A stretch of DNA of 63,973 nt, the filler included, from Perkinsus olseni (lineage: Eukaryota), in NCBI GenBank assembly GCA_013115125.1. It is 4 parts of 4 records of this genome, joined end to end, with 100 filler letters (N's around TTAATTAATTAA, not from the genome) between each part and the next. Parts side by side here need not be neighbours in the genome. Positions count along the whole stretch, not along the records: positions 50,546 to 63,973 come from JABANN010000757.1; 3 more parts are not named here. The stretch is one strand, 5' to 3'. The stretch's first letter is position 1. Each line of letters starts with the position of its first letter. This document shows, in pieces, positions 23,201 through 63,973 of this stretch. The notes beneath the pieces were generated by a model. The model had not been told where the DNA came from, did no database searches, and worked only from the letters and a program-made list of their open reading frames with translations. The translations under genes and the position numbers were made by a program.

Positions 23201-26200
23201 ACGACCGTGCGCGCCCAGCAACGACCAGTCGCCTGAGAATGAGGATAGTTTCTCAGCCGACGATATAGGCTTTACCCTTTCATGGGTCTTTGGAGGAATT
23301 TCTATTGGCCTGATTCTGCACTCGTATAACCTGCCTCATCGCCGTCCAGATTGTCTCTTGTGGATGTCGGGCTCTTATTCAGGTATCCTTCGCGCCCAAC
23401 GCAGCTGGAGCCTTTGCTGAAAAATTTGCTCTGCGCATTAAGGACAACAGGCAGTCGGCCGTCATATCGTTACGTGGCTCGGGGAGCGCTCTGGAAGTAG
23501 TGCCAGCACACCCTGGTATAGCCTTGTGGAGCCTCGTGTAGCAGGTCAATATTACGCCGACGTCCTTCTGCCACCTCGGGCCTGTCTTGCCGTACCAGCA
23601 AGATCCGCCTTGCCGTCAGGAGCTCACCTTGGAGAACCCGACTGACCATCCCATAGAAATATACAGTGTCGAATTCGACACCGTGAGCTCGGGAGTTGTT
23701 CGTTGGCAGTTTGTCTGTGCAAGTATTAACACTTAGGCATACGTCACTGAGGAGGAGATGCTCAGGGAGTATGATGGCTATGACGAGTACAGCATTGCGG
23801 AGATGCCGATGAGGGAGGTCGGATCATCATCCTGGCCCCGCCTCGTAGAGAACGTAGAGAAAGCTAGGGCGAAGTCGGCTAGAGCGGCGCAGGTGAGTCG
23901 AAAGCTATCAGATCATACCACTTGACATGAGTGAAGCTCCCGCCCCGACGGTGGCGTTTCTTGTAGAGGCTCGAGGTGGAAGGGTCCGCTGATGACGAGA
24001 CGGCGGAGGGTGAGAACACCATATTCGAGCCCGAAGAGGACGATGACCTCCCTGAACAGCGCGAAGAGGACTACCCCAACCGCGTCCCTCCGAGTGAACG
24101 CCTCTCCATCATTCTTCTGGGGCCACCCAAAACTGGGAAGACTACGGTTGCTCGTGCGCTAGGAGTCGAGCACTTGAGAAAGCACCTGACAGTGGATGAC
24201 TGCATCGAGTGGATCATCAGCAACCCGAAGAGCCTTCGAGACGACTATGTCGCGGAGAAGCTTATCCGAAAAGTCCGCGACGCGATCAGTGAGTGCGAGT
24301 CAGAATCGCGTGAAGGGGTGCCCGACCTTGTGAAGGCGGACGTCGTTGCAACGATACGATACCGTCTTGACCTACCGGACTGCAACGCGGGGGTTGTGTG
24401 GGACGATTGTTCCAAAGCTTCCAAGTACGTGGCCGAGGACTCAATTGAGTGCATCTCGGAGGCCCTTCCCAAGGAGGAGAGTCTGAAGTTTATCCTCTTT
24501 GATGTTGAGGGCGGGTCTGATGAGGGCTGGAGCCCGGAGACCGCCCTGGCCGCATACTATAGTAGACTTGAGGAGCTCCTCAGTCAAGAACTGCAGGAGG
24601 TCACTGAGAGTTTAGCCGAGTCGGAGCGCCAGGAGCAGTCGGAGGCGGAAGAAGCGGCAGTTGATGGTGGTGGAGTAGCCCCGAACGATGTGGAGCAGCT
24701 TGCCAGAGCTGAGCTGTCTGTAAAGATTGCCCGTAGAAAGAAGGAGCTGGAAGGCCTTCTGCAGTGGTTTGAGGATGAGAAACCGGCCACGAGGGCGGGC
24801 CAGTATGTGGAGGAGCTCTCTGCACTAGTTCGTAAAATTCGTGGAGACCCGGTCGATGGAGATGATGGCAACCATGGGGACGACGTTGTTGAAAGCGACG
24901 ATGTGAATGACGATCCTGTGGGCGAGAACGCTGCGGTAGTCACTGAGGCACAGGGCTTCGATACGGATTCGGTGACGCCGCGATCGACCACCTGGCTGGA
25001 AGTTCTGCTGGCAGCGGAGCAATCCGATGCGAGGAAGGTTACTGAGCAGGTCTTGGCATCCGTCGCTCAGCCTGCATTCCCAGCCTATAGCCGACTACCC
25101 CACCCAAAAACAGTGCAGTTGGTACGGAAGCCGATGACGCGCGAGCCTCGAGCTCCATCAGAGCTTTTCATGCTACTGACTCCTGTGGAGAACGACGAGG
25201 GTGCGGAGGAATTCCTCGAGCAAACCCGATGGGTTATACCCGCCAGATCGGAGCAGCGCATTGCTGTACAGTTCTATGCGACGAAGGCGGGCACCTTCTC
25301 TGAGCAGCTTCGGTTCGAAATCGTATCCAGCGGCCTCTCACCGGTGCAGACGTTTGTGGATGTATCGGGCACTGCGGGCTTCCCTAAGATCAACAACGAC
25401 CCTCGCAATGTCTTCATGAGGAGAATGAAGAATCGTCCTCGAGGGGGCTACCCTAAGAAGCAGTTTATCGTCTCCCAAAGCGTGTTTGACTTTGGCCCAC
25501 TTCTGGCCGGCCGAACCACTGAGATGAGGGACGCCCTACTCGCACTAGAACAGGACGATCAAGAACGTCTGGCGGGCGAGCGCTTGTTGCGTCAGCATGC
25601 CGAAACACTCCGGATCACGAACAACTCCCTGTTCCGTGCCGAGGTTCGGTGCGTTATGGCCTCCACGATGAGTGCAGGGCCGGGTCAGCCCACTGAGACC
25701 CCTGATGACTCGGAAGACTTCCCGTCGCTCTCGCTCGATGACTGTCCGTTCGTCATTGACCCGTCGCAATTCACCCTAGATCAGGATGAGACTATGGACG
25801 TGCAGCTCTGGTGCTTCCCTCAGCGGGAAGGGCAATTCCGTGATACACTAGCCGTTCTGGTGAAGGACAACCCGGAGGTGTTCAAGTGGGGGGTCGAGGC
25901 TATCGGAGCGGTTCCTAAGGCGGATCTCGACACCGATGTTGTTGACTTCGGAAGCCTCATGGTGAGGCAGCGAGATACTCGCACGATTCACATTCAGAAC
26001 GCAGCGGCCGCGCCAGTCGAGTGGGAGCTGCTCGCGGCGGATGTTAATCAGACTGAGGAATCTGAGCCCGTTCCCCCGCAAGAAATCCTCATCGAGCCCA
26101 TGGGTGGTAGACTAGGTATTGGTGAGTCTTCTGACATCAACGTCACCTTCTATGCGGAGGACCCTGTGTCACACGACTTTGTAATGAATATGCTAGTACG

Positions 26201-29200
26201 GGATTGCGAGGGACTTGGCCGCTTTGCGCCGGAACCGAGACCAGTCCACTTTAAAGCACAAAGTTTCAAGGTCCAGGTCTCCGTGGTCATCCCGGGCGAC
26301 GACGAAGCTCCTTCGAACGTCATAGACTTTGGCGACATTCGAGTCGGTCAGGTGGCTGAGAGGTCCTTCGAGCTCACCAATGACGGTGAGCATGCTGTGG
26401 ACCACTCTCTCGTAGTGAGAGGCAAGAAGATGCGGAAACTGCTGTCGGTGGACCCTGCGAGATCCACGCTCGAACCCGGGCAACGTCAGACGGTTAAGGC
26501 AGCTCTAGTCTGCCCGAGAGCCATGTCGGTCGTCAAGAGCCCGGAGATTTTCATGAAACTTGTAGAGAGTCGGACAAAGGAGGAGGTGAAACCCGAGATG
26601 CCTCCCTTCAGGATAAGTGCAGATGCTCAGTTCAATCGTGTGACGGTCAGTCCGTCGGCGGAGATTGATTTCGGACCCCTCGTGGCGGGTGAGACCGCTA
26701 GTGAGACCATTAAAGTCACCAACGATGGGGTCTTCGAAATACCATGGTCGCTCTTCGACTTGAGCAAGCCGCCGGAAACCCCCAGAGACGAGACTCTCGA
26801 GGCGCAATCAACGTTGTCAGTTGGCCCCTTCAATGTGGCACCTGCAAGCGGGACTCTGCCGCCCGGGGAGACAGCAGAGGTGACGATTGCGTTCGATGCT
26901 CTCGAAGAGAACAGCTATTCCTCCAAACTCGGCCTGCTGGTTGAGGGAACGGAGTCTGGAGAGCCTCTCCAGATCAGACTGTCGGGCGAGAGCTACATTC
27001 CGGGGATAGATACCGAAAATATGCACCTGCTGTTCGAGGAACAGTTCACCAGCAGGACGAGAGAAGACGCCGAGGCGATAGTCGGGTCCGCTGATCTCCG
27101 CGTGTATTGCGAGGACGAGAAGCTCTTCAGCTACGGGCCAATCGTGACAACCCGGTCTGTGACGGAGCGCTTCAGATTGTCCAATCCAACGGGCATCACC
27201 GTCGATGTCGAATGCAAGCTCGAGGACGTGGATAAAGACACTCCGTTCACTCTGTCACCGCCACAACTGAGTATCCCTCCCTTCGAGTACCGGTATGTGA
27301 CTATGACCTTCAGTCCTCAAGAGGTTGGAACTTTCGACGGGCGATTCTCCGCGGTAGTTCCTAAGGGAACTGACCCCTCTACGAACAGCCTGTCCTTCAA
27401 CGTGAAGGGTGAAGGTGTGGTGCCTTCACTGGAGCTGAAAGCCCCAGCTTTCACCAGCATTGACTCGAGTACTCTTGGCTTTGATTTTGGCGAGTTGCCG
27501 ATCGGAGCGTCACGGGAAGTGTCCCTTGCCCTCACCAACGAGCATCGCACAGATGCCACGTACAGACTCGAACGCAGCGGATCTGGCATGAGGTCCTTCT
27601 CCGTCACGGGACCAGTGAATGGCACGTTGAAGCCTGGAGAGACACGGCACATCAGAGTGAGCTTCGTCCCTGTGGCAGCGTCCGACGGCGATGAGTTTGT
27701 GCTGAGACTTGTCACCGTACACAACGACAATGAGAGTCGCTTGCTGAAGTTGAACGGTCGCGGCGTGACGCTTCCAGCAGAGTGGGTGCTCCCTCGAGGC
27801 ACAGGAGAGATCGATGGCGCATACAATCCTCACGACCTCCTCGATATTGGAGACATCCCTATCGGGTCTGAGAAGCAGCTCACGCTCGGGCTGAGGAATG
27901 TGTCTGGTTCCACACATAGGTTCGAGATGGTGGATATAGCGGACCCTCAGCTGCGGGGTTGCATCGACATCATGCCCTCGGCCGGACACGTACCGGCGGG
28001 AGAGACTAAGACGCTCAGGCTACGGATGAGACCAACGGACAAGATGATCCTGGAGAAGGCCACCCTGCTCTTCAGTTTGGTGGCTATCGACGTGGAGCGT
28101 CGGGGTGTGCCGTGGGATAACTTGCAGCAAGTTCGGGCCTCTGCCAGCGATGATGCAGCTACCCGGCCTGAACCTCCCTACGCCGCTCTGAGCGACGCCG
28201 CGGTCGAGCTGCCACTGAAGCTGTCGGCCAGGTCCGATTCGATAAGTTACGTGTGCAGCCAGGAGGAGAGAGTTGTCTTCTCTACCACTGTTCTCTACCA
28301 TGCGAGACAACACATCTTCGTGCTGGAAAATGCCTCGGAGATTTCCTTCGATTACTCCTGGAGGCTCGTCAATGCCGCCGCCGCCGCCCGCTCGACAGCT
28401 CATCGTGCATTCACAGTCGTCAGGCCTCAGTCAGGGACACTGCAAGCTCGAACGAAGCTCGATGTTGCCCTTCGATTCAGCCCAACGGAAGTATGTGACT
28501 TCTCTACTGTCCGGTTGGAGCTCATGCTGCCGCAAAAGGATGAAGCAACACCTGCCATGTCCCTTGCGCTCGATGCCTCGGCCACGTGCCCGGTGTGTCA
28601 CTTCGAGATTCTCGACTGTCCCACCCTGCCCGGGCGTGATGATGTCAGAATCATTGAGTTCGAATCGCTCGGCACAGGCGTCCGAAACCGCAGACGCTTC
28701 AGCGTACTCAACACGACCAAGGAGAGGTACCGCTTCTTCTGGGTCGATCACCGCCAAGCTCTGCCCGACGGCTGCGCTACTGATGATGCTGCCGGTGGTG
28801 CTGGAGGGGAAGCCACAGCGATGGGCGGCAGCCTACAGCCTTTCGGTTGCGTAACGCGTGATGGCGAAATCGCCAGCGGGAAGAAGTATGAGATGGAACT
28901 CCTCTACACTCCGATGAGCTACGGCCGTCACGAAAGCTTCTGGACGTTCCGCGTACCATCACAGAACCTGGTGGTCCCCTTCCAGTTCAAAGGAGTGGTT
29001 CGAGAGCCCAGAGTTGATGTCGACTCGCCCAGTCTCAACTTCGGCAAAGTACGCCTGTGGATGCTGACTCTGTCGAATTACCGCTTGCCATCATCTAACC
29101 GGGCGTTCGTCGCTCTCAGGTTCTGGTAAACTACGAGACTCGCCGCACAGTGAACCTCGTGAACCGAGAGCATTTACCATTCCAGTTCGTGATCGACTCA

Positions 29201-34559: not shown

Positions 34560-37100
34560 GTCGTGTCAGGTCGGTGCATTACTCGTGTGACGTTCTGGCA
34601 GCGGAGGCAGCAGAGCGTGCGAGGGAGGAGCAGGAAGCTTTGAGACGGAAGAACAGGGTAGGGTGGGCTGGGTGGATGTCTGCCAGGATGGGCTGCTGTG
34701 CAGAATAAAGTGACCTGGGAGGATGGGCCTTCTGGGAAGGGGGATATGAGGAAAAAGAGATGGATTACGAAAGGAACGGTATGTCATTCGGAGGCGTATC
34801 TTTGGTTGAAGCAAGGACTTGATACCACTGCAAGATTCTCGCTAGCGGAGCGAAGCTGTTGAAGTGTTTTGGCTGTCAGATTATGTTGGGTAGAATGAAG
34901 GAGGCAGGGAGGGAGAGCTCGGACGCTAAACTCGGGTACGGAGTGCGAGAAGGTCCACCGGTGAAGGTCGGGATAGACTTCTCCAGACGGAGGGTTCCGA
35001 AGCCACTTGGTAGGTTTGGGTGGTATCGAGGTGACGCACTTTTCTGTGTTTTTTGTTCCGATCTGCATCAGGGGTTTTCTGATGTCGTTTGGGGGGTTGT
35101 GAGCATTTGGACCTGTCGGTAGTCCATTGGGCTGTGAGGCTGCATCTGCTGGGAAGGCATATTTTTTGCGATTTTTTTTTGGAATGGGCGTGAATTTGAC
35201 GCGTGCTAGCTGATTTGGGAAGGTCATTGGTGGAGGGTGAAGTCTCGGAAGAGGGCGCCAGGGTTACGTTCTTTAGGCGATAAGTACGGCGAGAAGGTCG
35301 GATGGATGGGAGGGCAGCTGGGGAAGTTGGACAAGGGATGTGGGGGAGGGGGAGGGGCGGTTGATGTGTACAGAGAGGCTGATGTGGGTAGGGAGTTCGA
35401 GGCGAGGATGAGGGGAAATCACGCAGCAGCGAGCTTCAATGTAAGTGGGAAAACGACAGGTGCGGGGATCGAACTCGGGTGTATGGTAGGTTCAAAGCGG
35501 CTGTTATGTGCCAAGGCTGGAGGCGAATGATGTCAGAGGAGAGCTGAATCGGATGGGGTTACTCATCGGCGAACCTGCGGAGCCAGCGTAAGTCGAGTTG
35601 CGATTGTTGTGGTATGAGTATTGTGTGGTTCAGGCCGTGGCGGCATACGGCGGTGGGAGGCAGTAGCGGTGAGAAGTACGTGGAGGAGAGGGACTTCGAT
35701 CTGTGGAGACAGCGGGGGAGGGGGGAGAGGGTTGCATGATGGTTAAGGATGTTGAGGTCACTTGGCGTTGGGTTTAGTGTGAAGCTAAGAGGGGTTGGGT
35801 AGAGGTCTGTGGAGGGGACTTGGTCAGCGTCGCGCGCCACGAAATTAGGGGACAGTTGGGTTTAATTGATTAATACCAAAACATTCCCACTTTATTGAGA
35901 GCGAAGGTGGTACCCCACATGTCTATCAGAGGTAGCGCTAAAGGTAGTGAGGGGAGGACGATGATAGCAGCCTCAGGTCCTTTCCCGACTAGTAGGTCGG
36001 GTAGTAGATCTGGCCCTGCACGAGTTACGGCAGGAAGCCCTACGAAGTCGTATGACCCAACGGCCTGGGCCGACAAGAAAAGGCTTGCGGTAATGGTGTA
36101 TTGGGGGGGGGGGCGCTCTGAAGGATGCTACGAATGGAGTTCCTCGACGCAAATTTACTGTTTTCGAGGCGCGCACTTTCCGTAGATGGAGATAAGAGCT
36201 CACTGGCTGACAGTAGCGATAATAACAGTGAAGCAAATAACGGTCTGAGTTTCAAGTCTAATTTGATAGCGTGGCCACCCATGGTAGGGGTTAGCCCACT
36301 GCCTTAGATAGCGAGAGCCGAGAAATTGAAGGTTGAACGGAGGAAGGCGAAGGAGGCCGCGGTGTCGAGGGAAAAGGTCGTAGGGGAGGAGGAGGAGACG
36401 CTGATGGAGGTCCATGATAACGTCAAGTAGTATCTTGGGTTGAAGAGCGATGGAAACAAATTAGGGCGGAGCGAAGCTGCCTTGTTAGTTATAATCCTCT
36501 GTCGTATGTTGACAATGGTAATGCGCGTAAGGAGGAAGACGCTGGAGGGACCCTGCGTGGTGAATCGGAGTTCCTCCGGACTAAGGCGGTGAGGGGAGGG
36601 AGCCATTCCCAGTGTTTAGCAAACTAATTTCTGAAAGTCAGAATGGATTCTGGGATTGATTTTTAGTCCTGTAGTGCGGTACCGTAATCAACTCTGAGTT
36701 TCAAAAGGTTCTGAGGTTCATCGAACAGCTTCATAGACTTCAGCTCGACTCGCGGGGTGATAGAGGGGAGTATCTTAGGTTGAAGAGTATTTAAAACAGG
36801 GAGAAGGGAAGGAGGAGGTTCCTGAGGACGGAGAGAAGACAGGGCCGATGCAATGGGAGTGGATAGGCCCACCTCAGACAGAGGTGGGTGGCAGTACGGG
36901 TCCTAACGGGGGACGGTACTGGTGGTGGGTCGGTAGAAGCTTTCCTCATACATCGCGCTGTGCATGGTACAACAATCGTCACGTCTCTCAGCCGTGCACC
37001 GGCTGGCATCACGCCAATTCTACACAATAGTTGTCTCCAAAAACTCTTCTGTCGCCAGCTGCTGCGGTCTTCTCGTAGTGGGTCTGTAGTGTGAGACGTG
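34560..37100 (-). mobile_element. Highly decayed non-LTR retrotransposon (LINE ORF2 relic)
   Basis: Frameshifted motifs in LINE order: GVMP..DVTIVVP..TDP/QYRP (RT start), WGTTFALNK (late RT), QLRSASENLAV..HFILH (C-terminal region); strong strand-composition skew; no intact YADD found. Confidence 0.45.
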
Positions 37101-50545: not shown

Positions 50546-51022
50546 CAGCAGTTCCGTCCGACAAGAAGCTATAGTTATTTTGGCCTATCGATCAAGTCCC
50601 CCGCACGTACGACATAAGAGACCCCAAATAAACCTGCTCGAAAACCTATTTCCAAGGAATGCAGCCGCCCTCATAGGTCCCTACGGCCGTCACACAAAAC
50701 AGCAGCGTACCAGCGTTGCTCTCCCCAGCAAACACCTATTCTATTGTGCTGCCCTACTTCTGGGCCAGAAGTTCTGGCAACGACAGTTTACACGAAATAG
50801 CACCAAAAACCCGCTCATGAGCTAGTATTTCTAGGAAAGAGCAGCGCTGCTATTCGATGGTTCAGTAACGCATAAAAGGTGCATTCTTGAAAATCTCATC
50901 TTTCTCCAATTACCAATAGATGCTCTAACCCATTGCACTTCACAAAAACGCACCGAAAAATTAAGCAGTTATTTCAAGGCGTTGCCTACGCATCTTTCTA
51001 GGCAACGCCGCCTTGCCAACTC

Positions 51023-52128
51023 GTGAGTACATACGTGAGTCACGTAACGTGTTTGTTTATTGTGTTCATTGTGTTTCTAATTTTCGTCGATGACCTGCCG
51101 CGTCCAGTGCTCGCATGCACCTACTGGTGTGATTTGGCAGCTCCCTCTCGTCTTCTTCCCACCCTGTTCCCCTATCTCACTCTCGCGATTCTCCCTGTGG
51201 CTGCCTTGAGCAAGCTCGGGCTCGAAGCAATGGGAAACGCGAAGGATCTTGAACGCATGAGAGAGGAGCTGTTCTCGACGCGCAGCAACCGAGCGACAAA
51301 TCTTCCGGCCACCCGGAGGTATAGCAGCAGGCCTCAGGCTTATAGCTCTGAGCCCCGCGACAGACGTTCAGCGCGCGGAGCATTTCTACGTCCAGGAGTA
51401 AGTTCCCGTTATACGTCCTGTCTCGACCTCCAGTCCTGATTGAGCGGCTCGCCTCAGCAGAAAAAGCCTATGATTGCTCACGCTGTTTTACTCTTCGTCT
51501 ACGACCTGTGACGCCCTCACGCTGCCTCCACAGGTATATGTACACGAGTTAGAGTCGGGCTGTGAAATCGAGCAGACGAGTCCCCTTGAAAAGATGCGCT
51601 TCAAGTTTTTCTTCCGGTCGAAGGAGGATCCTAATGTCGGGGATGTGGTGTGCACTTCACTTTACGATAAGAAGCATTGGTATTATTTGTAAGTCTTTGG
51701 GTGGGCTTCTGCATGGAATCGACCTAATTATGCGTCCTTGAATGCTCGCCGTGCTGCTTCTCAGTGATACGAGGTTGTGGTTCTTCCGCGGCAATGTCGA
51801 CGACGTGGAGATCCGAGGTGCCAAGAAGGAGAGCTGGGACGTGGTCCAGGAGGCCGGCCTATTACCATTGCACCATCTTTCCTCTCATGCTCGACAGGTT
51901 CTCAAGCAGAACGCACCTCCGGACTCGTTTGATTATACAGGCATTGACAAGTGCCGCCGCATAGCCGAGGCCATCCTCGGTGACCCTCCCCAAGGCTACA
52001 AGCGATATGGGGACCGCTGGATACTCGAGTTCCACAGGAAGAATGCTGAGGCAATTAGAGAGATGATGGTTGAACTGAAGCGGATCTATGATGAAGAAGA
52101 GCAGCCGGCGTCAAACTTGAGTGCATAG
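51023..52128 (+). CDS. Lineage-specific hypothetical protein, about 3 exons (start uncertain)
   Basis: Three coding-like ORF segments separated by GT..AG introns (~51398-51532 and ~51689-51764); hydrophobic leader. Confidence 0.55.
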
Positions 52129-53306
52129 GGCGGGTTCAGAGTCGATAATTCTCCTTCTTCTGTGTTGTTGTTTATTCATCATGATGCTCATGTCTGTGTA
52201 CTTGCTTTGGTATGTTTAGCGTTACAAGTGTATCGAGAAGGAAGTCTATATGCCAAAAAGCTAGGAGAACCTCGGGGCGAGCCACGATGCTGTGTTGTCG
52301 ACTGGTATAGACGCTAGAAGGCCAGCGACGCCGAACTGGCATTCTTATTCGCCAATTCGATGCTACGATTTCGGCCCTACCACCGAACTGCTGTCTTCAC
52401 TCGCTAATATGATATGCTCGAGTGCTGGCATAGCGGCCGCACTCTAGGTCGGATACAGTTTCGAATGGTAGACACGACCGCATACTATTCCGACTGAGTC
52501 AGTCTGGGACACTTAGTAAGTCTAACACACCTAGTAAGTGGAGAAGTAGTTGGTTGTGACCAAGGTCCGGTTAGCGAGTGGGGTCAGCTACCTTGCCCAC
52601 CAGGAGGAGGTGCGCCTAGATGCTGCTCTCTGGTCAACACTGGTGACCTCCGCATCCTACCTCAGGGTCAAGGGATGGGAAGAAAAGCAAGTCCCTATGA
52701 TGTTCCACGGGATAGTTATCGTCATGTTGATCTGGCCTAGCCGCTACCAGAGGCCCGGCAGGGTAAGTTCAGCGTCGGTTGTACATAGTACCCTTGAGCG
52801 CTGGTCTTGCTATTGTGTTTCTTGTCCTTCTTCCTTCTGCGATTTCACTCTCGTGGAATCCTAGACTAGGATTCCTAGTCGGAATCACTACCAGTACACG
52901 CGCACGATGAAGACATCGTGGTAGGGGAGGCGTACTAGTCCGAGATGCACTCGGGGGCCAATTTTACACGACGTCCACCAGGTTTGTGGTGCTAACCCTA
53001 AGTGCCCACTCGAAAGCTGCTTTTAGGGCCAGTTGGTTTCACATGACCTATCTTGGGTGGCCACTCGTCAAAGGACTCCTGAATTCGGGGACCCGCCGCC
53101 TAGGTGCGCACTAAACCCCGTTTCACACTGAGTTTAGGGCTCCAAAAGGGCCATTTAGTGAAAGCCACAGGCTAGCCTGTGAGCAAAGTTTAAGCAAGCC
53201 GAAATCCCGGGGCTGTCCCGAGTGACACAATGTTGTGTCACGAGCTAGCAGCGCTACAACGGTCTGTAAATGTCATCATATCGAACTGTTGATTTCTTTT
53301 TTTTTC

Positions 53307-54466
53307 ATGCCAGTCGCTAACAACGTTGAGGAGAAAGTTAAAGCGTTGGCCAAGGACCTTCTGGGAGAGAACCCCATCACTGAGGACGCCTTGAACACTC
53401 TGGTCTCGAACTTGGTGAATAACGATCTAACTACGATCGACTTCTTGGCTCAAGCCCCAGTGGCACTGGTTGATGCTGTACTCAACGCTTATAACGGTGA
53501 AGCGGCCAAGGCGTCGGCTAGACTCAGGCTGGATGTTATAATAGAGGAAGCGCAAGCGCGCCGCTCTCTAAAACGCAAAAGAGCTGAGAAGGAAGTCGAG
53601 GTCTTCAACATGGCAACTGGCTTGAAGAACCTACAGGATCACGTTGGCCCGTTGGCTCTCAAAGCTCCTCCAGAGCTGATCCCGCAGAGCCGGTTCTTGA
53701 ACAAGTTGAAAGAAGACCCCTATACATATGTTCCTATGCCGGACTTACAAGTAGCCCAAGATGTCGTCGACAGCTCAGTGACAACCAAAGAGAACCTAGA
53801 AACTGGTAAGCCTGTACACATCAAGCTGTCTCCGTCGAAGCCTGTTACTAACCTAGCCCAATGGGTTAGCTGTTTTTCGCGCTTTGGAATAGCCTTGATG
53901 ATTATCATTCCTTCTGTCGAGGAGGTCAGTTCTTTGGCTATTATCGCTTACATCAACCTAATCATTAAGCTAACTGAGAACACTTCTTTCAACCAAGCAA
54001 CTGCTTTCGACGAGCAGTATCGCTCCCGGGTATCGGGTTATCACTCCAGGGGTCTGTCATAGTCGGACATTTTAGCCGACCCTGGTTCGGTAGACTCCGC
54101 CTTGCTGGTTAGTGCCCAAGTGGGTGTCCTTAACCGTGATCGTGACTCCAAGTCGGAGGGTAAGAAATCTCAGAATCGGTTCGACCAAGTCTGTCGGTAT
54201 TGGAAGCAGGGCCGTTGTAACCAAGGTTCTCGCTGCCGGTTCCGACATAGTTATCCCGACTCCCGTCAACAGCAACAGCACTCTGGCAAGTCTTTCTATG
54301 ACGTCGATGCTCTCAAGAACAATAACGATTTCTTAGAAATCATTTCTACCCTGGCTCTGGGAAAAGCAACCAGAAAGATGCTGAAGGCGCCTCTCGCGGT
54401 CGTTCTCGAAGACCAAAACGCTCGAGGTCGAGGTCATCTGACGTCAATGACTCTTCAAAAAAATGA
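53307..54466 (+). pseudogene. Gag-like ORF1 with CCCH zinc finger
   Basis: ATG at 53307, in-frame TAG at 54060, then CRYWKQGRCNQGSRCRFRH; a probable 1-nt frameshift near 54330 leads to an RS-rich tail ending in a TGA that overlaps the RT ATG. Confidence 0.75.
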
Positions 54467-56626
54467 GTAGGGGCTGTACACTTGAATCGATGTACAGTCC
54501 CGCTCGCACATCACCATCGGTTCAGCTTGAGAAAGTTCTCATTTCCTGTCCTTTCTATAAGTCTACCAAACTGGCCAATGAGGCCACTATCCCAGTCATC
54601 TCTTCTTCTGATGAACGACGTTTGTTGAGTCTTGCAAAAGCAAAGTACTTGGCGGAGTCCCAGAGCCGTCTGAACTATATAGTCGATGGGTCTGGATTAC
54701 CAAAGAATGTATCTCTACCCAAGCGGAATCTCGCTTGCCTTCTCAAGTTCGAGGAGCGTTTAAGCACCGTAGTTGCAAAGTACAAGTTAAAGCTTGCCAT
54801 TGAGCATCTCGAGACCCCCGAAAGCATCGATGCCTTTCACCAAGCGAGTTGTGACCTCGCTAGCGCGATTGAGTCTCATGTTAACTCAAACTGTCAACCT
54901 CATCCTGCCACAAGCCTGCGGCCAGCGGTGTTCAAGTTTTTCATGGAAATGTTTGACATCGACCCTTTCGAAGTCGAAACAATTCACGAAATGCTGACTC
55001 GTGGAGCATCCATTGGTGCAAATGAACCCATCCCACAGTCAATTTATTGGCCCTCGGCGAAGAGCTCCATTGCCAACAAAACTATATATAAAGTAACTAA
55101 GAATTACAAGAGTGTCGGTCAGAATGAGAAAATAGTGAATGAAAAATTCCAGGACGAAGTCGCCCGTGGATTTATGAAATGGCTCACCAAAGATGAGGAG
55201 AAGGGGAGGGATTTCGCACCCATGGCTTTACTCGTCAAGTCAAATGCACCCTCCAATGAGTCCGAGAGGAAGCTTTCTCACTATAGGCTCATAGAAGACT
55301 ACACAAGGAGCCTTCTAAACAAAAAATGCCGTTGCTCACGGACTTTGCTACTCCCAAAATTACAGGATGTGGTTAAAACTCTCTCGTCGTTGGTGGACCA
55401 GAAACGTCTGGTGCCTCCAATTGGATCTGGCATCTGCCTTTCGGCACATTCCAATCAGGCACGAAGATGCCAGTCTGCTAAATGTACGAACATCCTTAAG
55501 AGCAGCTCAACACCTGGTCTTGCCCTTCGGCTTAAAAACATCCCCGTACAACTTTGCAAGGGTCAGTGGCATGTGCCACCGTTTGATAAAACTGATCACT
55601 TCATCAATGTATGGCCAATCATCGTCTCACTCGCTATTATACGTCGATGATTTGATTCAGTTTTATCAAGGTGACGTTGAAAGCTCAACTGCGCTCACAA
55701 CTATATTGTTATGGCTATGCTTCGGCTTCAAATTGCAACTTGAAAAAATGTCCATCAACAAGAACCCCACTAAGTTTATAGGTTATTCACTTGAGTTCAA
55801 AGAGTCCGGCGATGTGTGGTTGGCGATCCCCGATGATAAGATCGAGAAGATGTCGTCATCTATCTCACACATGCTTCAGCAACAGCAGTGTTCTCTGAAG
55901 GAGTTGGAATCCATCTCCGGAAAATTGAATTGGGTATGTAACTTGATTCCACACATGCGTGTGTATCTCTCATCTTTGTATGGCGCCATCGCCATCATGA
56001 ATCGCCGGAAGATGAGATTCTTGAAAATCGGCAAGACTCTTCGTGGTGACTGCTCTCTCTGGTTGAAAGTTCTGCAAGACAAGACTGTCTACAACAAACT
56101 GGTTGTTGAAGCCTAGCCAGTACCATCCCACTTCTCAATTTTAGCGTCAGATGCCTCGCTGAACGGTATATGCGGCTTTCTCCACATCAACCGCAAGTCT
56201 TGTTATTTTTCCTTTCCTCTAAGTGCCTTTTCGTCAGCACAACGTAGGGTTTTGCTGCGTGACGAGAATCATCCCAAGTCAAGGGACATGGTTACTCTTG
56301 AACTACTAAGTGCTCTTCACACTCTCTATCTCGCAACAACTCTCAACCCGGGAAAACGAGTGCCTGTAATCATTGCTGTGGATAACACTGCTACGCAAGG
56401 CATAATCAAGAAGTTATACTCCAAGCGGAGCGTACTCCGAAATCTACTACTTAGAGCTCTACCTCGCATTGTAAATGGGTTGTCTGCAGTCTCGGTAATC
56501 CATCTGAAGTCAGAAGAGAATAAAATAGCCGATTACCTATCGCGCAATACAAAAGTGAATCTCCCCCCGGAGTGGGCCCGTTTGACTCGAAGCCCGGACT
56601 GGATACTAGGCTCGGTCGTAACGTAG
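54463..56626 (+). pseudogene. Reverse transcriptase-RNase H
   Basis: YRLIED, LDLASAF, LPFGLKTSP, YVDD, FIGY, GKLNW; RNase H SDAS, LELL, VDN, NKIADYLSR; +1 frameshift near 55400 and in-frame TAG at 56114. Confidence 0.92.
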
Positions 56627-56735
56627 GCTGCATGATGCCGTAGATACCCCTATTGCTGTTCTCTGATGATACTAGCTATGCATGCTTCAATGTGAATAAA
56701 CTAGAAAGTTGTCAGCCTACGATACAATTAATCTT

Positions 56736-57905
56736 ATGCCTTGGTAGATACATACGACATCTGGTAAATGCAGCAGCCTCCTCAAAAGACCAAAACAATC
56801 TCCGTTACCGAGCGATCGAGCTGCTGCCGTTGCTGGGGTCCTATGGAAGTCATCCGACTCAAGCTCGCAGATCGATCACTTCATCAATGACTCAAGAGCA
56901 GCTTCTACCCATCAAGGTGCAAAGTCCGCTGTGAACCTCTTCATGAAATGTCTGCCAGAGGGCGAAGCCGCCTTCCCACTGCAAATCCACTTGCTGATCG
57001 GTTTCTTGATGGTCATGGTTCACTCAGGGGCTTATTGCTACTCCACTATGAAAAGTTATGTATCTCATCTAAAGACCGTGAGCCGTCAGAAGTATCACCG
57101 CGTTTTTTCGGAGTTAGAAGAGAGCCTTCTGAGAGATGCGTTCAAATCGGCGGCAAAAAAATGCCCACCAAAAGCTCCAAAACAGAAGCGCCCTCTCACG
57201 GTTTATGAGTTAACTTCACTCGCCAGGGTTACAGTTATAGGTGGCTTGTCCAACACTAGCACCAAAACAATAGTGGTAGCCTCATTAATCGCAACCTTCG
57301 GATTATTGCGATCCAAAGAAGCCCTGAGCCTCCAAATGAGAGACATAAAGTTCTCCATACATGGCGAGTGTGAAGTCTGCTCCATCCTATTAAGGTCCTC
57401 TAAGACCGACCAGACCGGCCAGGGGCACACAGTACAGATTGGGTGTGCCCAACGAGCGCGGAATTGCGCTACACCTCATTGCGCCGTACACCGGCTTAAA
57501 GAGATGTTTTTCAGTCATCATTGTAATTTAAATAGCGCCTCAAAGGTCTTCAATTTGAAACCTGACTAATGGCGTAAGGGTTTGAGAAGCCTGCTAGAGA
57601 AGGTTCATGGCCGTTCCCTGGAACATGAGCCGTTGGGTACACATTCACTAAGACGAACAGGCTGTCAACTACTATATCGAGCAGGCCTTTCTATGTGGGC
57701 CATAATGGAATATGGCAGATGGACTAGCTCTGCGGTCGAACAATATTTGACAGGAGTCACGCTCACATCAGCCCCAATTTACTCTGACATGATGATCTGT
57801 GCCAATGATGCTGGCGGTCCTTATGTCAGTCTATCGCCGCCATTAATGCCGAGTGACGAAGACAAGAGCGACGACGCCAGTGAGAAGTTCTCGCTTGCTC
57901 AGTGA
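56736..57905 (+). pseudogene. Tyrosine recombinase
   Basis: Catalytic set GLLRSKE, SKTDQ, HSLRRTG, GRW and EQY; in-frame TAG at 56745 and TAA at 57567. Confidence 0.92.
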
Positions 57906-58543
57906 TGTGGTCAATATCTCTATGGGTGCGCCATGCCCGATACGTCAAGTATCACAGCGCATGGTGTTGAGTGTGCAAGTCATCTTGCGCACTCGAGATA
58001 CAACCCACACTCCCAAGCCTCAAGTGAGGGTGCGAGTTTAAAGCGTCGTAAAAGACGATACTGCCCTCTGAATCTCTACCGTAGTTGAGTTATTTCCAAG
58101 TAAGGGAAAGGCGCGCTTAAAGGGACCACTTGACTTGAGTGGCCCCTCAACCGAGAGGGTCCGATTCATCTGAAAAGTCCTAAGCAGTGAGGGACCTTTA
58201 CTAAGGGTCTCAAAATCCGTTCCTGAGTGTGAGTGACTGTTCCGTGGGGGTTATGTGAAATATGCCCCGGACGTTGAATAAGTATTATATTCCCCCTATA
58301 TCTGCGGCCAGTGATGGTATATTTCGTACCCCTCAACTCCAGCCGAACCGCGCAACCTCTTGGCTCGAGTTTGCACTGCTGCTGATGTGCCAAGTCTTGT
58401 TCCCAGTGACGCCGAGCAGTTCTGAGCCCTATGTCTGGTCTCAGGGGGACTCAACACCACACACCTAGTATCACACAACAAGTGACATCATTGACACGCA
58501 CATGTAGATAAACACTCCAAAAAAAACTGATTCCTGCCAACCT

Positions 58544-59365
58544 CTAAGGGCAATTGCTAGGTCTAAAGAAAGTAGGCCTACTATGAAGACTATAGTGGGT
58601 GAAGTGGTCGCGACCGTGTTTCAGTTTCGCACTATAATACAGCTGTTGCAAAACCTTGAGCTTCTCGGTACCAACAGCCTTGATAAGATCTTGAGCCTTC
58701 AGCTTGATTTTCAACCCCCACATGTCCTGCACTGAAACGACCGGCAATACGTCGGTGTCATAGTGTGCATTCATCTCGAACTTGTTTGAAGACAACTCAT
58801 AGACGTTAAGGGTAGGCTTACCGCCTCCCACGAACTCCAGCTTGAGGAAGATATTCTCCTTGGTCCAACGGGCGCAGTAAGACCCTTGCGGCATGTGAGG
58901 GTGGTGGGTGCGGATGCTCAAGGCCTTGGGAATGACCGGCTCGATACTTCGTGCCTCGGGGCAGAGGTTATTTCTATACAACCTGGTGTCCCTCCCCTCC
59001 TTAAACTTAGGGGAAAGGTAATTGAATGTTCCTTTTGGAGTGCCGAGAGAAGTGATAGAGTCGACCTCAACCGGTCCCAACTTTTTGATGAGTTCCCCGT
59101 TCGTCAGGCGAATGTGATAGTAATCGTAAGACAAGATCTCTTCGGTCTTGTACTGGACGTCCTTCTCCTTCACCCCAGACGCTTCATCGCTCACATCAAT
59201 AACAGGCTTGGAGCCATCTTTCGGGACCTTGAATGTAATCCGCGTGCACTGCCTGTCATCGAGAGAAGAGCGGCAGTAATGTCCATTCGGGTACCTCGAT
59301 ACCGCAGCCGACGGCTGCCCTTCGAAAGCAATCGTTGAGATAAGTAGAATGCGAAGACGCGACAT
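58544..59365 (-). CDS. Lineage-specific, probably secreted protein with two internal repeats
   Basis: Intronless ORF with leader MSRLRILLISTIAF; repeats begin PNGHYC and PQGSYC and each ends in ..CP. Confidence 0.7.
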   Translation of the reverse strand: MSRLRILLISTIAFEGQPSAAVSRYPNGHYCRSSLDDRQCTRITFKVPKDGSKPVIDVSDEASGVKEKDVQYKTEEILSYDYYHIRLTNGELIKKLGPVEVDSITSLGTPKGTFNYLSPKFKEGRDTRLYRNNLCPEARSIEPVIPKALSIRTHHPHMPQGSYCARWTKENIFLKLEFVGGGKPTLNVYELSSNKFEMNAHYDTDVLPVVSVQDMWGLKIKLKAQDLIKAVGTEKLKVLQQLYYSAKLKHGRDHFTHYSLHSRPTFFRPSNCP

Positions 59366-60080
59366 GGAATAACGAGATGGCTCTCCGAATACAACCACAA
59401 CTGTACATCCGCCGGGAATCGGATCCGACCACGAAGAACAAAGCGGAGGCATCTCACGTATAATCCGAGTTCTCCGACGAACCACGCGTGCAATGGATTG
59501 CTTCCTTTCCCTCCTCCAAGGCCCAACGTTAACAGTCAGTTAGGCGGCCCGTCTAATGGTCGTATTGTTAAGTTTATTGATCCACTGACCCTATCTTCCA
59601 CTGATGAGAAGCTACGCTGAAGCTAAGGCAATTGGCGGATGACAAGAAGACAGCAGATGCAAGATAGGAATCCAAATGGCAAAACTAGGGTGTTGTGTTC
59701 CCAATCAACCACTCTCTAACAGTATCAACTTTCACTTCCTATTCGAGACTCGTGAGGAGTAACTGCAGCAACTATCCTCGAGTTCAGCGGTGGAACGGTG
59801 CGGAAGAAATCTGTTGAGCGAATCTTCGCCGCCAATTCAGCGCCACGCCGAATCGGGCGATCTCGTTGCGGAATCGCTCGAACGACCCTCGTTCCGTTCT
59901 TCTGGACTTGCCTCTGGCCAAGACTGTCGCGTTCGACCGATCGCCGATGAGCAGACCGACCAAGATGAGGAGATGAGTTCGGGTCCAACACTGCCGAGTC
60001 TATTAGACTCTCCCATATGGGGGCAACCCGGCACAAGTTGAACGAGATTAGACATGACAAAGCACCACCAGAACATGTGG

Positions 60081-62408
60081 TCAAGTGTACTTGCCATCGC
60101 CGTGGCGTCCTCTGAGCAGTCGGATGCCTATCATGAGCACACCAAGCCCTAGTAGTAGCAGCAGTGGCACCACGGCAGAAGCTCCTCCATCCGGTAGGAG
60201 CTCCGTCACGCCTAAAAAATGGAAACCGACCCTCTCCCAGGATGCCGAAGCCGATGCTGCAAAGCTCTCGAACAGCCATTGAGAGATCGAGGCTATTTTC
60301 CGCTCACCTCGGAAAGTTCCACTCGGGTTGTGAAGCGAAGACTCACCAACCCTCGTCCCTTGGCACACTGGACGCTCTGCAAGACCGGGCCTTATCCAAC
60401 TCGGAGGCATCTTGTCAATAACCTCAACACTTTCAAATTCCACCGGTGTGAAGGAAGCGCCGACCACGTTATACCTGTCGTCACGAGACGGCAGCGAACA
60501 TTTCATCGAGATTTTCCCCACCATTCGACGGTCCTCTGCAGACCGGTTACCAGGTCCACAGTTTCAGGCGGTGTGAAGATTCGTCTGACTTTCTCATGGC
60601 TAGCGACGGCATTTACGACCTCCAAACGAGCAGGTTCGTACCTCGCCGGAGGAGACGCGCTGTCTACATAGCACAATGATCTTTATGTTATCATTCTAGC
60701 GTCCCGTTAGTGAACCAAATTCTCTCGACTGTTTCTCTCTTGTGATGTGCTTGCACAATGAGTGTCTTCATTCTCCATTCCTCTATGTAACAAAAATGTC
60801 CCTTCGCTCTCCTCGGTTATCTTATCGGTTATTGTTGATTTTGGAATACGACCAGTGTGGCCTATCTCATCCACTATGAGCCCATCTACTTATGATGCGC
60901 TCTACCACCACATTCGGTCCAACGAGATAGACCAAGCCCATGTCCAGTGACCAATCCACGCGCGTTCTCCTCCAGCGACCGAGGTTTCAGCAGCGGCTCT
61001 CACTTGAGAGGGTGATCAGGCTTTCCCATCGCATTAGAAATCTCCTTGGCTAGTCGATTGATATTGTACGGTGTATCGGCACCGATGTTGAAGACCTGCG
61101 AGAAGTCCACAACAGATGCCGCCTCGCAAGGTGTCCAACTTCGTTCTGAGCTGCTGTCACAAGAGGCGCCCTCGAGATGATTGGAGCCACGTCGTCTATA
61201 TACGAGAACGCTCGAAGCTGTTGACCATCTCCGAAGATCGTCAAAGGCTTCCCGTGGATGATCTGGTTCACGAAGATACCCACCACATTCCGGTACCTGA
61301 AAACTGCAGCGTAATCGCGTGAAGGATGCTGCCGAATTGAGGCCTGCCTGTCGAACATGTTCTGATGCGGACCATACACGTTGTGCGGACGGAAGACGAC
61401 GAAATTGATACCCCACATGTCGTGGGCAGCTCGGAGGTCCATCTCGAAGGCGTATCTGATGAATATTCGATAACAGTGGAAAAGGACTCGCCGGCAAAAA
61501 GCCCTCTAGGACGCAAGAAAACGGAAATTGCGAAACACCAGCTCAATAGAAGACGGGAGCGACGCACGTGAGAGAAGATTGAAGCTCGCTGCAGAGCGGC
61601 ACTGTATGGAGATCCGTCGACGGCACGGTGTAGTTTTTACTTGGATATCCCGTATGGGTCCTCGGGCTGAGGCCTGTCTTCTTCGGTGAGCGGTCTCATC
61701 TCCGCCCCATCACTGAGGTCGTCGTTCAACGGCCCGAATACCGCGATTGACGATGTGAAAACAAACGTGTGAACCTGAACAGGCGAGGCTGAAGCCAAAG
61801 AGCGAGGCATTGCCGACCTTATGGCGAACAGCTGCATTGAGTATCTCTACACTTCCGACGAGGTTGGTGCGGTAGTTGAAACTCCGCACAAAATGAGACA
61901 GGCCTTCCGCAGCGTAAGCGGCTAGATGATACACAAAGTCAAATTTGTATCTGAGGGAAAACTACAAGACTGAGAAGGCGACACTCGCGGGGCCGATACT
62001 TTTCGAATAGCCCCTCCATCGCTTCCGCATCTCTGACGTCAAGCCTCATGAAGGTGACCCCGGAGGGGACATTGGACGTAAACCCGCCTGTTAGGTCACA
62101 TCATGTGCATTCGAGACCTCTCGAAGCTACCGCTAAGGTCGTCTATCGCCACAACTTTCATTCCGAGATCTCTGCAATGCCTCGCCACATGCGAGCCGAT
62201 GAACCCTGCAGCGCCGGTCACAAGAACGGTCTGAATGAGAGGTTGGAATCCTCGTACGGTCGATCGCCATTGGGTTCACCTTTCCCTTCGCGCTGTCTTT
62301 CTCGACTTCCGAGAAGGTGTACGGTTGGTATGGTATTGGTGTCTCCCCCCTCCCGCCGAAACTTTTGCCCGCAATGATCAGGAGAAGACAGAAGCAGCGG
62401 TACGCCAT
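60081..62408 (-). CDS. Extended-SDR NDP-sugar epimerase/dehydratase (UDP-glucose 4-epimerase-like) with signal peptide and C-terminal TM
   Basis: VLVTGAAGFIGSH, HLAAYAAEGLSHF, FTSSIAVFG, PYGISK|Y, RPHNVYGP, IFGDGQQLRAFSYIDD; tail VVPLLLLLGLGVLMIGIRLLR. Confidence 0.9.
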
Positions 62409-62924
62409 TCACAACTCAAACTACTGATGCAAGCGGCCCCATTACCAGTGCTGCCCTGAGAGGGGCGGGCGAAGGTGGGTTCAACTCAGCCTCTGGGGGT
62501 CCGGCAAAGGTGGGAGGGCTCACACGAAAAAGGCTTGGGGTGAGCCTCATACACACGCCGGTCGTGACACCTGCATATCATACGCTGCTTCGGCCTTGCT
62601 AGGCCGCTCGAGAGTGAGGGCTTCTCTGTCGTTTCTTAGTAATCCGATGGAACTGTCCAACAAGCAATGATATAACAGGGTTCCTTTCTTCTGCAACTCA
62701 GTCCACCATCAGGGGTCCGCGAGTTCGGTCCTCAGCGGCTCGCCTGGCAAAGAGTTCAGTCTCTGTTATTCAACCATGCACAAGAGTCGACGACTCCTAC
62801 GACTATGAGTCATTATCCTGTGACATTGCCAGAATGAGGACCTCTCCTGAACCCTCCGACTCGGAGGCTCCGAGTGCCGAAGTTCAAACTGAAGCTTTGA
62901 TTACTATCAGTGTTACACGCTAGG

Positions 62925-63298
62925 TTTAAGCGCGCCTTTCCCTTACTTGGAAATAACTCAACTACGGTAGAGATTCAGAGGGCAGTATCGTCTTTTACGA
63001 CGCTTTAAACTCGCACCCTCACTTGAGGCTTGGGAGTGTGGGTTGTATCTCGAGTGCGCAAGATGACTTGCACACTCAACACCATGCGCTGTGATACTTG
63101 ACGTATCGGGCATGGCGCACCCAGAACCTCAGATGATGGGTGCTAGAAGAAAAAAAAAGAAATCAACAGTTCGATATGATGACATTTACAGACCGTTGTA
63201 GCGCTGCTAGCTCGTGACACAACATTGTGTCACTCGGGACAGCCCCGGGATTTCGGCTTGCTTAAACTTTGCTCACAGGCTAGCCTGTGGCTTTCACT
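62925..63298 (-). mobile_element. Non-autonomous miniature derivative of the DIRS-like element
   Basis: 63149-63298 is the reverse complement of 53157-53306, and 62925-63123 is the reverse complement of 57923-58121, joined by a 25-nt linker. Confidence 0.9.
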
Positions 63299-63560
63299 TC
63301 TGAGTCACCGAAGCAGCTCGTCACTTGCAACACAACTGCTTGGCAGTCTACAAATAACACCATTGATACACGTACATTCACGGGACCATCGTCCCTAGCA
63401 TCATGAGGAGGAGTTACCAGAATGTGCCTCAGAGTAATGGGAAGAGCTTTCGAAGACCACTATTGTGTAGAACTGGCGTGATGACAGCAGCCGGGAGCGC
63501 CCTTTGTGCTGAGGGACGTGGCGATCATACCATGTACAGCACGATGTACAAGGAAAGCTT

Positions 63561-63900
63561 CTATCGAATCTTAGGACAATAGGCTGGTTTGAAGTAAACA
63601 CCAACTCGAAAATGTGTGAAGTAGTCGCGACCATATTTAACCGTCGGAGTGTACATAAGGGCTTTCAAAATTCCGACCCTCCCAGGACCAATGGCGTTAA
63701 CAAGCCCTGGTTCCTTCAGCTCAATCGCAAAGTCCCATTTCTCCTTATCTCCGTTCAACGAGGAAGAATCGACACCATAGTGGGCATCCATCTCGGACTT
63801 GTTTGAAGACAACTCATAGACGTTAAGGGTAGGCTTGCCGCCTCCCACGAACTCCAGCTTGAGGAAGATATTCTCCTTGGTCCAACGGGCGCAGTAAGAC
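63561..63900 (-). CDS. 3' exon of a paralogue of the 58544-59365 gene
   Basis: SYCARWTKENIFLKLEFVGGGKPTLNVYELSSNK is shared; the downstream part is diverged but alignable (KYGRDYFTHF..FKPAYCP). Confidence 0.8.
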
Positions 63901-63973
63901 TGTAATCCAGGGAACACAATACCCAGATATAGGAGAGGTTAATCTCAATTGCTTATCCAATCTCAATCAATCA

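Follow-up and report, generated by a model that had tools for sequence, protein, structure and literature searches.

A 372-nt unit in Perkinsus olseni is probably a solo terminal block of a split-direct-repeat tyrosine-recombinase retrotransposon

The window, a 63,973-nt stretch of Perkinsus olseni DNA (GCA_013115125.1) joined from four parts, contains a 372-nt unit without open reading frames on the minus strand (62926-63297). The unit is probably the terminal A2-linker-B2 block ("solo AB") of a split-direct-repeat, Ngaro-like tyrosine-recombinase (YR) retrotransposon of Perkinsus. Like a solo LTR, it is a remnant of an already described kind and not a new parasite of the element. The sequence-only reading had taken it for a miniature that keeps the two non-coding ends of such an element and is mobilised in trans. 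An ORF-less derivative with two ends it is, real and repeated, but its being a newly joined deletion product is not supported, as A-linker-B is a native 3' block of split-direct-repeat elements, intact in two other families of this genome.

The unit lies in the same contig (C3076, window 50546-63973) as a long copy of the element. In a self-BLAST of the window, positions 53157-53306 match 63298-63149 at 150 of 150 bases and positions 57923-58121 match 63123-62925 at 199 of 199 bases, both inverted, confirming the mismatch-free arms noted from the sequence. Also as noted, the 150-nt arm stops at the base preceding the gag ATG (53307) and the 199-nt arm begins 18 nt past the final base of the YR stop codon (57905). 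The 374-bp segment originally delimited is real and precisely bounded, but its outermost base on each side is common to the flank, and the true unit is 372 nt. We name its 5' arm A and its 3' arm B. On the minus strand, repeat A (63149-63297, 149 nt; identical to 53158-53306), which has a T-rich tract at its end, is followed by a 25-nt linker (63124-63148) and by repeat B (62926-63123, 198 nt; identical to 57923-58120), which has CTTAA at its end. An AA core is present on both sides. The target-site AA (63298-63299, minus strand) equals the last AA of B and is the probable recombination core, the empty-site joint being ambiguous by these two letters. No target-site duplication is found at the unit beyond this 2-nt AA, as the sequence-only reading had stated. 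The T-rich end of A runs on into TCTTCTAG (63134-63158, minus strand), which resembles a splice acceptor. SIRE of Trypanosoma cruzi is said to supply trans-splice acceptors, and Perkinsus mRNAs are trans-spliced.

The long copy (53158-58120, plus strand, 4963 nt) is composed of A1-gag-RT/RH-YR-B1, as defined by self-BLAST, reading frames, and Pfam, with all three coding regions in this order on one strand. Repeat A1 (53158-53306) is followed by a gag-like frame (53307-54470; PF18345, E 1.7e-6; PF16131, E 1.3e-6), in which an in-frame stop (54060-54062) precedes a CCCH zinc finger. The RT/RNase H region (54451-56626; RVT_1, E 2e-13) has a frameshift near 55400 and an in-frame stop at 56114-56116; its RNase H part has no Pfam match of its own and is recognised by likeness to P0001 and relatives. 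The YR frame (56748-57905; PF00589, E 1.9e-4, below the curated cut-off) contains the R, K, HxxR, and Y motifs and an in-frame stop at 57567-57569. Repeat B1 (57923-58120) is the sole B of the long copy, and in sequencing run X2 the B unitig is at twice single-copy depth. The coding region is thus interrupted by three in-frame stops (54060, 56114, and 57567) and one frameshift. The stop at 56114 is a sense codon in a relative; no relative covers the other two. An alternative genetic code can be rejected for the three stops, as host genes and several related elements are open at length under the standard code. Just two matches are found for the RT, and the better one, at 43% identity, is a Perkinsus olseni protein.

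No methyltransferase is found in 16 frames scanned, nor in a scan of 7 frames of the long copy, and only 121 nt separate the RNase H stop from the YR frame. There is no inverted repeat longer than 23 nt within 52600-58700, and hence neither inverted terminal repeats (ITRs) nor an ICR, and the self-BLAST reveals no split direct repeats A1..B1-A2-B2 downstream of the YR frame. The long copy is inserted in an unrelated repeat, the left part (52990-53156, plus strand) and right part (58121-58268, plus strand) of which were recognised by sequence comparison and adjoin each other in three other loci. In L022, the two ends of this non-coding repeat (loci L019-L022) are imperfect inverted matches of each other about 0.85 kb apart, resembling a MITE. 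Judged by its layout, with one A and one B, the long copy reads as a complementary remnant, A1-ORFs-B1, and not as the complete element it had been taken for.

Contigs from 4 of 10 sequencing runs were placed on positions 58900-63973 of the window, and the following results hold among the pieces listed. In X5, a different sample with its own SNPs, one 295-nt contig spans B, the linker, and 70 nt of A. In X8, which is more diverged, one contig joins the flanks of the unit and skips exactly 62926-63297, 372 nt, with two letters ambiguous at the AA core, representing the empty site. This joint is a single contig of depth 74.6, with a shorter side of 52 letters and the flag "between: not known"; in a second X8 contig (depth 19.5) the unit is likewise missing, and 39 other letters stand at the site. 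In X2, B is a 199-nt piece at a depth of 248 versus 121 in unique flank (2.04 times single-copy depth), and the pieces next to B have the ends predicted from the two assembled loci. Other ends and a third B would be expected with a B-A joint. Taken together, the bridging contig of X5, the empty site of X8, and the depth and ends in X2 indicate that the unit is no artefact, that it measures 372 nt, and that its insertion duplicated no target sequence, in line with YR integration at a short shared core (PMC7192593 and PMC3266345). Since the empty site is exact at the AA core, it also argues against the chimera and the one-off deletion that the sequence-only reading had named as objections to itself.

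X5 contains two near-identical linker-bearing copies (depth 185 versus 91), which fit a second solo but fit a spread of the short form too. Additional copies with other flanks are present in both X5 and X8, among the pieces listed. Judging from contig ends, X5 appears to carry the solo but not the long copy, and this speaks for the solo having been there first and the long copy having arrived later. X5 also lacks a 164-nt segment at 60684-60847, with 4 letters instead, another presence/absence polymorphism between isolates.

Two paralogous host frames, 58544-59539 and 63561-63938 (both minus strand), have no Pfam match and share 125 nt at 96.8% identity. Downstream of these frames, at a distance of a few hundred bases in each case, come the long copy and the solo, respectively. 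A joint from 63900 to 58900 in X2 and X8 is this 125-bp match between the two paralogous genes and not a rearrangement. We also rejected a single 10-kb composite in which A would serve as an inverted terminal repeat and B as the ICR, as the solo has its own empty site and its order is A-B, not end-to-start. A short high-copy repeat (63441-63567) lies 140 nt upstream of the solo and recurs at 36930-37049 and near 59600; in X2, its depth reaches about 7000 versus 121, with many differing flanks. Another contig of the window contains a 1720-codon open frame (23967-29129, plus strand) with Ig domains of the Hydin/CFAP65 type.

Searching the assembly, which is fragmented into 3353 short contigs, with the 374-nt query gives nine matches: the queried unit, both arms of the long copy, complete A-linker-B copies in contigs C2069 and C2824, and four fragments. 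The three complete copies have the same start and end positions and unrelated flanks, with pairwise identities of 75-83%. Thus, the assembly-wide count of copies with the same junction and ends reveals neither a single copy nor heterogeneous breakpoints. One of the fragments (C1437) is a fourth, decayed copy that retains A, the linker, and the beginning of B. Searches with the end motifs yield one additional A start, where contig C1949 ends, and no further complete copy. No burst of near-identical copies is found in this assembly, short-read assemblies being of a kind that may conceal copies. The B-A joint of this family has no match in the assembly at up to 3 mismatches and is absent from the contig ends of X2 as well, and no intact parent element of the family is found in the assembly. 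In X2 and X5, a variant of repeat A (L006:1-127, contig C2120; window 63182-63193) has a depth about 7 to 17 times that of single-copy sequence, and in C2120 this variant is followed by unrelated sequence in the assembly. Therefore, this A fragment may belong to another multi-copy unit.

The linker is present as the sequence-only reading described, but it is not new: the diverged solos in C2069 and C2824 share it, indicating that it is old and was not taken from the neighbouring long copy. Its 18-nt core, searched as a degenerate pattern drawn from these three copies, occurs with 0 mismatches at three places in the genome, all of them A-linker-B units, and none of the 11 two-mismatch matches in the assembly has similarity to the arms beside it. 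An origin from inside the long copy can be set aside, as the best match in the rest of contig C3076 is just 15 of 25 bases. The linker is not a splicing product either: the bases after A in the long copy are ATG, not GT, and the linker is foreign to the long copy. The proposed hairpin between the linker and the adjacent 3' part is absent from the predicted ensemble. There, the pairing probability of GCACCC in the linker is 1.0 for the distal GGGUGC (63013-63018) and about 0 for the adjacent GGGUGC; the predicted partner of the linker within B is 63013-63037. The predicted fold of the solo is stronger than that of 100 of 100 shuffles (z -5.9), and its linker-B pairing is significant, being reached by 1 of 300 shuffles. 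This pairing is not a general rule, as it is significant in none of three other families (reached by 38, 123, and 253 of 300 shuffles). A search of 62700-63700 against Rfam, with E values allowed up to 1, gives no match. Three other families have C-rich linkers between A2 and B2 (48-79% C; L088:6628-6651, L075:7139-7152, and L113:747-771), and the bases preceding B1 in those families are C-poor (7-17% C).

To place the unit in an element, we compare it with other YR families of this genome. A YR search gives 32 matches, and the stretches around 14 loci were examined. The full A1..B1-A2-linker-B2 layout is intact in 2 of these 14 loci. The C222 element (L088:1652-6965) has an A of 142 nt, a B of 314 nt, and a 24-nt linker confined to the space between A2 and B2; the C2780 element (L075:1776-7279) has an A of about 160 nt, a B of 127 nt, and a 14-nt linker. 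No split repeats are found in the other 12 loci, six of which run to a contig end. Free A-linker-B solos with unrelated flanks are present at 1 of 3 other loci for C222 and at 4 of 11 for C2780. The fourth family, C3013 (L076:1907-7035), has a long copy with three open frames and a single B at its end. Three of four loci examined for the B of this family carry a common upstream block of about 240 nt plus a linker, and the fourth has the last part of the block. Where its solos have the A block, the C3013 element has sequence resembling a tRNA, some 300 nt upstream of gag. The full layouts and solos of C222 and C2780, together with the C3013 blocks, indicate that the unit corresponds to A2-linker-B2 and its neighbour to A1-ORFs-B1 without it. 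As neither a B-A joint nor an intact parent is found for the family itself, the parent layout A1-gag-RT/RH-YR-B1-A2-linker-B2 is assigned by analogy.

How did the block come to stand alone? A solo LTR is the non-coding leftover of recombination between terminal repeats and marks a past insertion. Likewise, a complete element would have been inserted by its own recombinase at the AA core, and homologous recombination between A1 and A2 in place would then loop out the ORFs and B1, leaving A-linker-B. We regard this recombination in place as the most likely origin, and as a probable one. In the accepted model for split-repeat elements, the internal B-A joint is the template from which both outer ends are rebuilt. 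Having no such joint, the solo would not be expected to serve as a passenger RNA and is probably inert as a retroelement. By the same model, the block would not define the minimal cis signals of the family, as had been suggested, because it lacks the joint needed for rebuilding the ends.

Alternatively, the solo and the long copy may be halves of one element, split by a single recombination into a chromosomal remnant and a circle that was re-inserted 4.8 kb away in the opposite orientation, which we consider possible but rather doubtful. Whichever repeats recombined, the circle would bear a B-A joint, which a recombinase needs as its substrate, so that one half may have re-inserted nearby; the circle would be either the 5-kb A-ORFs-B or the 372-bp A-linker-B, inserted by a tyrosine recombinase. 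Two independent insertions would rarely place complementary halves with identical arms 4.8 kb apart, the chance being about 2.4e-4 in a 40-Mb genome if insertion is uniform, a post-hoc figure that ignores local preference. The arms of the solo and the long copy have 0 differences in 349 nt despite the three stops in the latter, for which the predictive chance is 0.02-0.13 if the stops arose in place. The repeats of C222 and C2780 are likewise 99-100% identical although their reading frames look broken, which suggests either that defective long elements are copied in trans, with their repeats reset, or that gene conversion keeps nearby repeats similar. The perfect arms thus do not point to a special partnership.

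In the version in which the solo was the circle, recombination between B1 and B2 in the neighbour excised A2-linker-B as a 372-bp circle, complete B-A joint included; a recombinase acting in trans then integrated this circle at AA, at a distance of 4.8 kb, and the donor was left as A1-ORFs-B. The long copy is missing exactly A2-linker-B, the arms are identical at a distance of 4.8 kb, the empty site is clean at the AA core, and C3013 provides another long copy with a single terminal B, all consistent with this course of events. But X5 has the solo at this place, with B continuous with the linker and no branch to YR, and its contig ends do not match the flanks of the long copy, so the presumed donor seems absent there. 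In addition, a literature search covering few subscription papers found no description of re-insertion of excised halves. We therefore consider this version unlikely.

Mobilisation as a non-autonomous retroelement, with an intact relative acting in trans to reverse-transcribe and integrate its RNA, is the reading originally proposed, and we find it unsupported and slightly more unlikely still. Three dispersed copies with identical ends and linker, copies with other flanks in X5 and X8, and a strongly folded RNA (z -5.9) would fit it, and PMC6681497, in its account of SIRE, calls the mobility of such units open. Yet the unit has no B-A joint, whereas the equivalent ICR template is described as indispensable for DIRS-1 (PMC7192593). 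Moreover, copies are few and only 75-83% alike, the end-motif searches gave no more complete ones, and all the features are equally expected from a recombination remnant, the fold being also part of the parent's repeats. What probability the reading retains is due to the two near-identical linker copies of X5, which may stand for a second site or for a tandem form that would have the joint.

An assembly chimera or a one-off internal deletion, including a single intact element mis-assembled into two pieces, is very improbable: the assembly is fragmented, the long copy and the solo sum to one canonical element, and both arms are perfect repeats, but the X5 contig runs across B, linker, and A, X8 joins the flanks of the solo, the doubled B of X2 ends at two assembled loci and not at a B-A joint, and the flanks of the long copy are two parts of one unrelated repeat.

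As a solo AB, the unit fixes the ends and the AA insertion core for one YR retrotransposon family of Perkinsus. At least four such families in this genome are accompanied by solos. With its complementary halves close together and its presence or absence varying among isolates, the locus suits a test of whether SIRE-type units move. If re-insertion were true, split-direct-repeat elements would also move at the DNA level, by excision and re-insertion without reverse transcription; this would account for long copies with a single B and for exactly bounded solos, and would bear on the question of SIRE mobility.

The parent element is Ngaro-like by its gene order, the absence of a methyltransferase, and the split repeats of its relatives, a class drawn from structural features, which are homoplasious according to the warning in PMC4157794. 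Ngaro-, PAT-, and VIPER-like elements are described with split direct repeats, A1-ORFs-B1-A2-B2 (PMC6681497, PMC12278014, PMC4157794, and bioRxiv 10.1101/2021.08.05.455354). A PAT-like element would combine these repeats with a methyltransferase, which is not found here. In VIPER, described from kinetoplastids only, the YR and RT/RH frames overlap, whereas in the long copy, in a Perkinsus host, YR begins 121 nt past the RNase H stop. Integration by a YR at a short shared core without target duplication is a feature described for DIRS-1-like elements (PMC3266345 and PMC7192593). Unlike DIRS-1, with its ITRs and ICR, the long copy has no inverted terminal repeats, ICR, or methyltransferase, and the inverted solo has the order A-B, not the end-to-start order of an ICR. 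For P. marinus, DIRS1-like elements appear as a table entry only in PMC3266345. Our literature search, which covered few subscription papers, found no description of split-direct-repeat elements or their solos in Perkinsus, and descriptions of solo AB or SIRE repeats just for Cafeteria and trypanosomes.

The closest parallels are these two. In the Ngaros of Cafeteria burkhardae, isolated AB repeats are scattered in the genome and ascribed to recombination between 5' and 3' repeats (Hackl et al. 2021, PMC8547959). The described layout, A1-ORFs-B1A2B2, and the order gag, RT/RH, YR resemble those of the Perkinsus element, the parent layout of which is inferred here. The present case differs in its host, in an empty site and a 2-nt core that are resolved, in a complementary A-ORFs-B remnant 4.8 kb away, and in that no intact parent was found. 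SIRE of VIPER in Trypanosoma cruzi joins about 185 nt from the 5' end of VIPER to 220 nt from its 3' end, with about 30 exclusive nt in between (Ribeiro et al. 2019, PMC6681497), an anatomy that, as described, is nearly that of the solo (149, 25, and 198 nt). According to the same account, SIRE was first called non-autonomous and later recognised as the A2-B2 region, its mobility being left open. SIRE is described as abundant, versus three complete solos of this Perkinsus family in the assembly. The analogy with solo LTRs is also drawn for AB repeats in PMC8547959. Unlike a solo LTR, the Perkinsus solo involves no integrase and no 4-6 bp target duplication, and is a two-part repeat with an exclusive linker.
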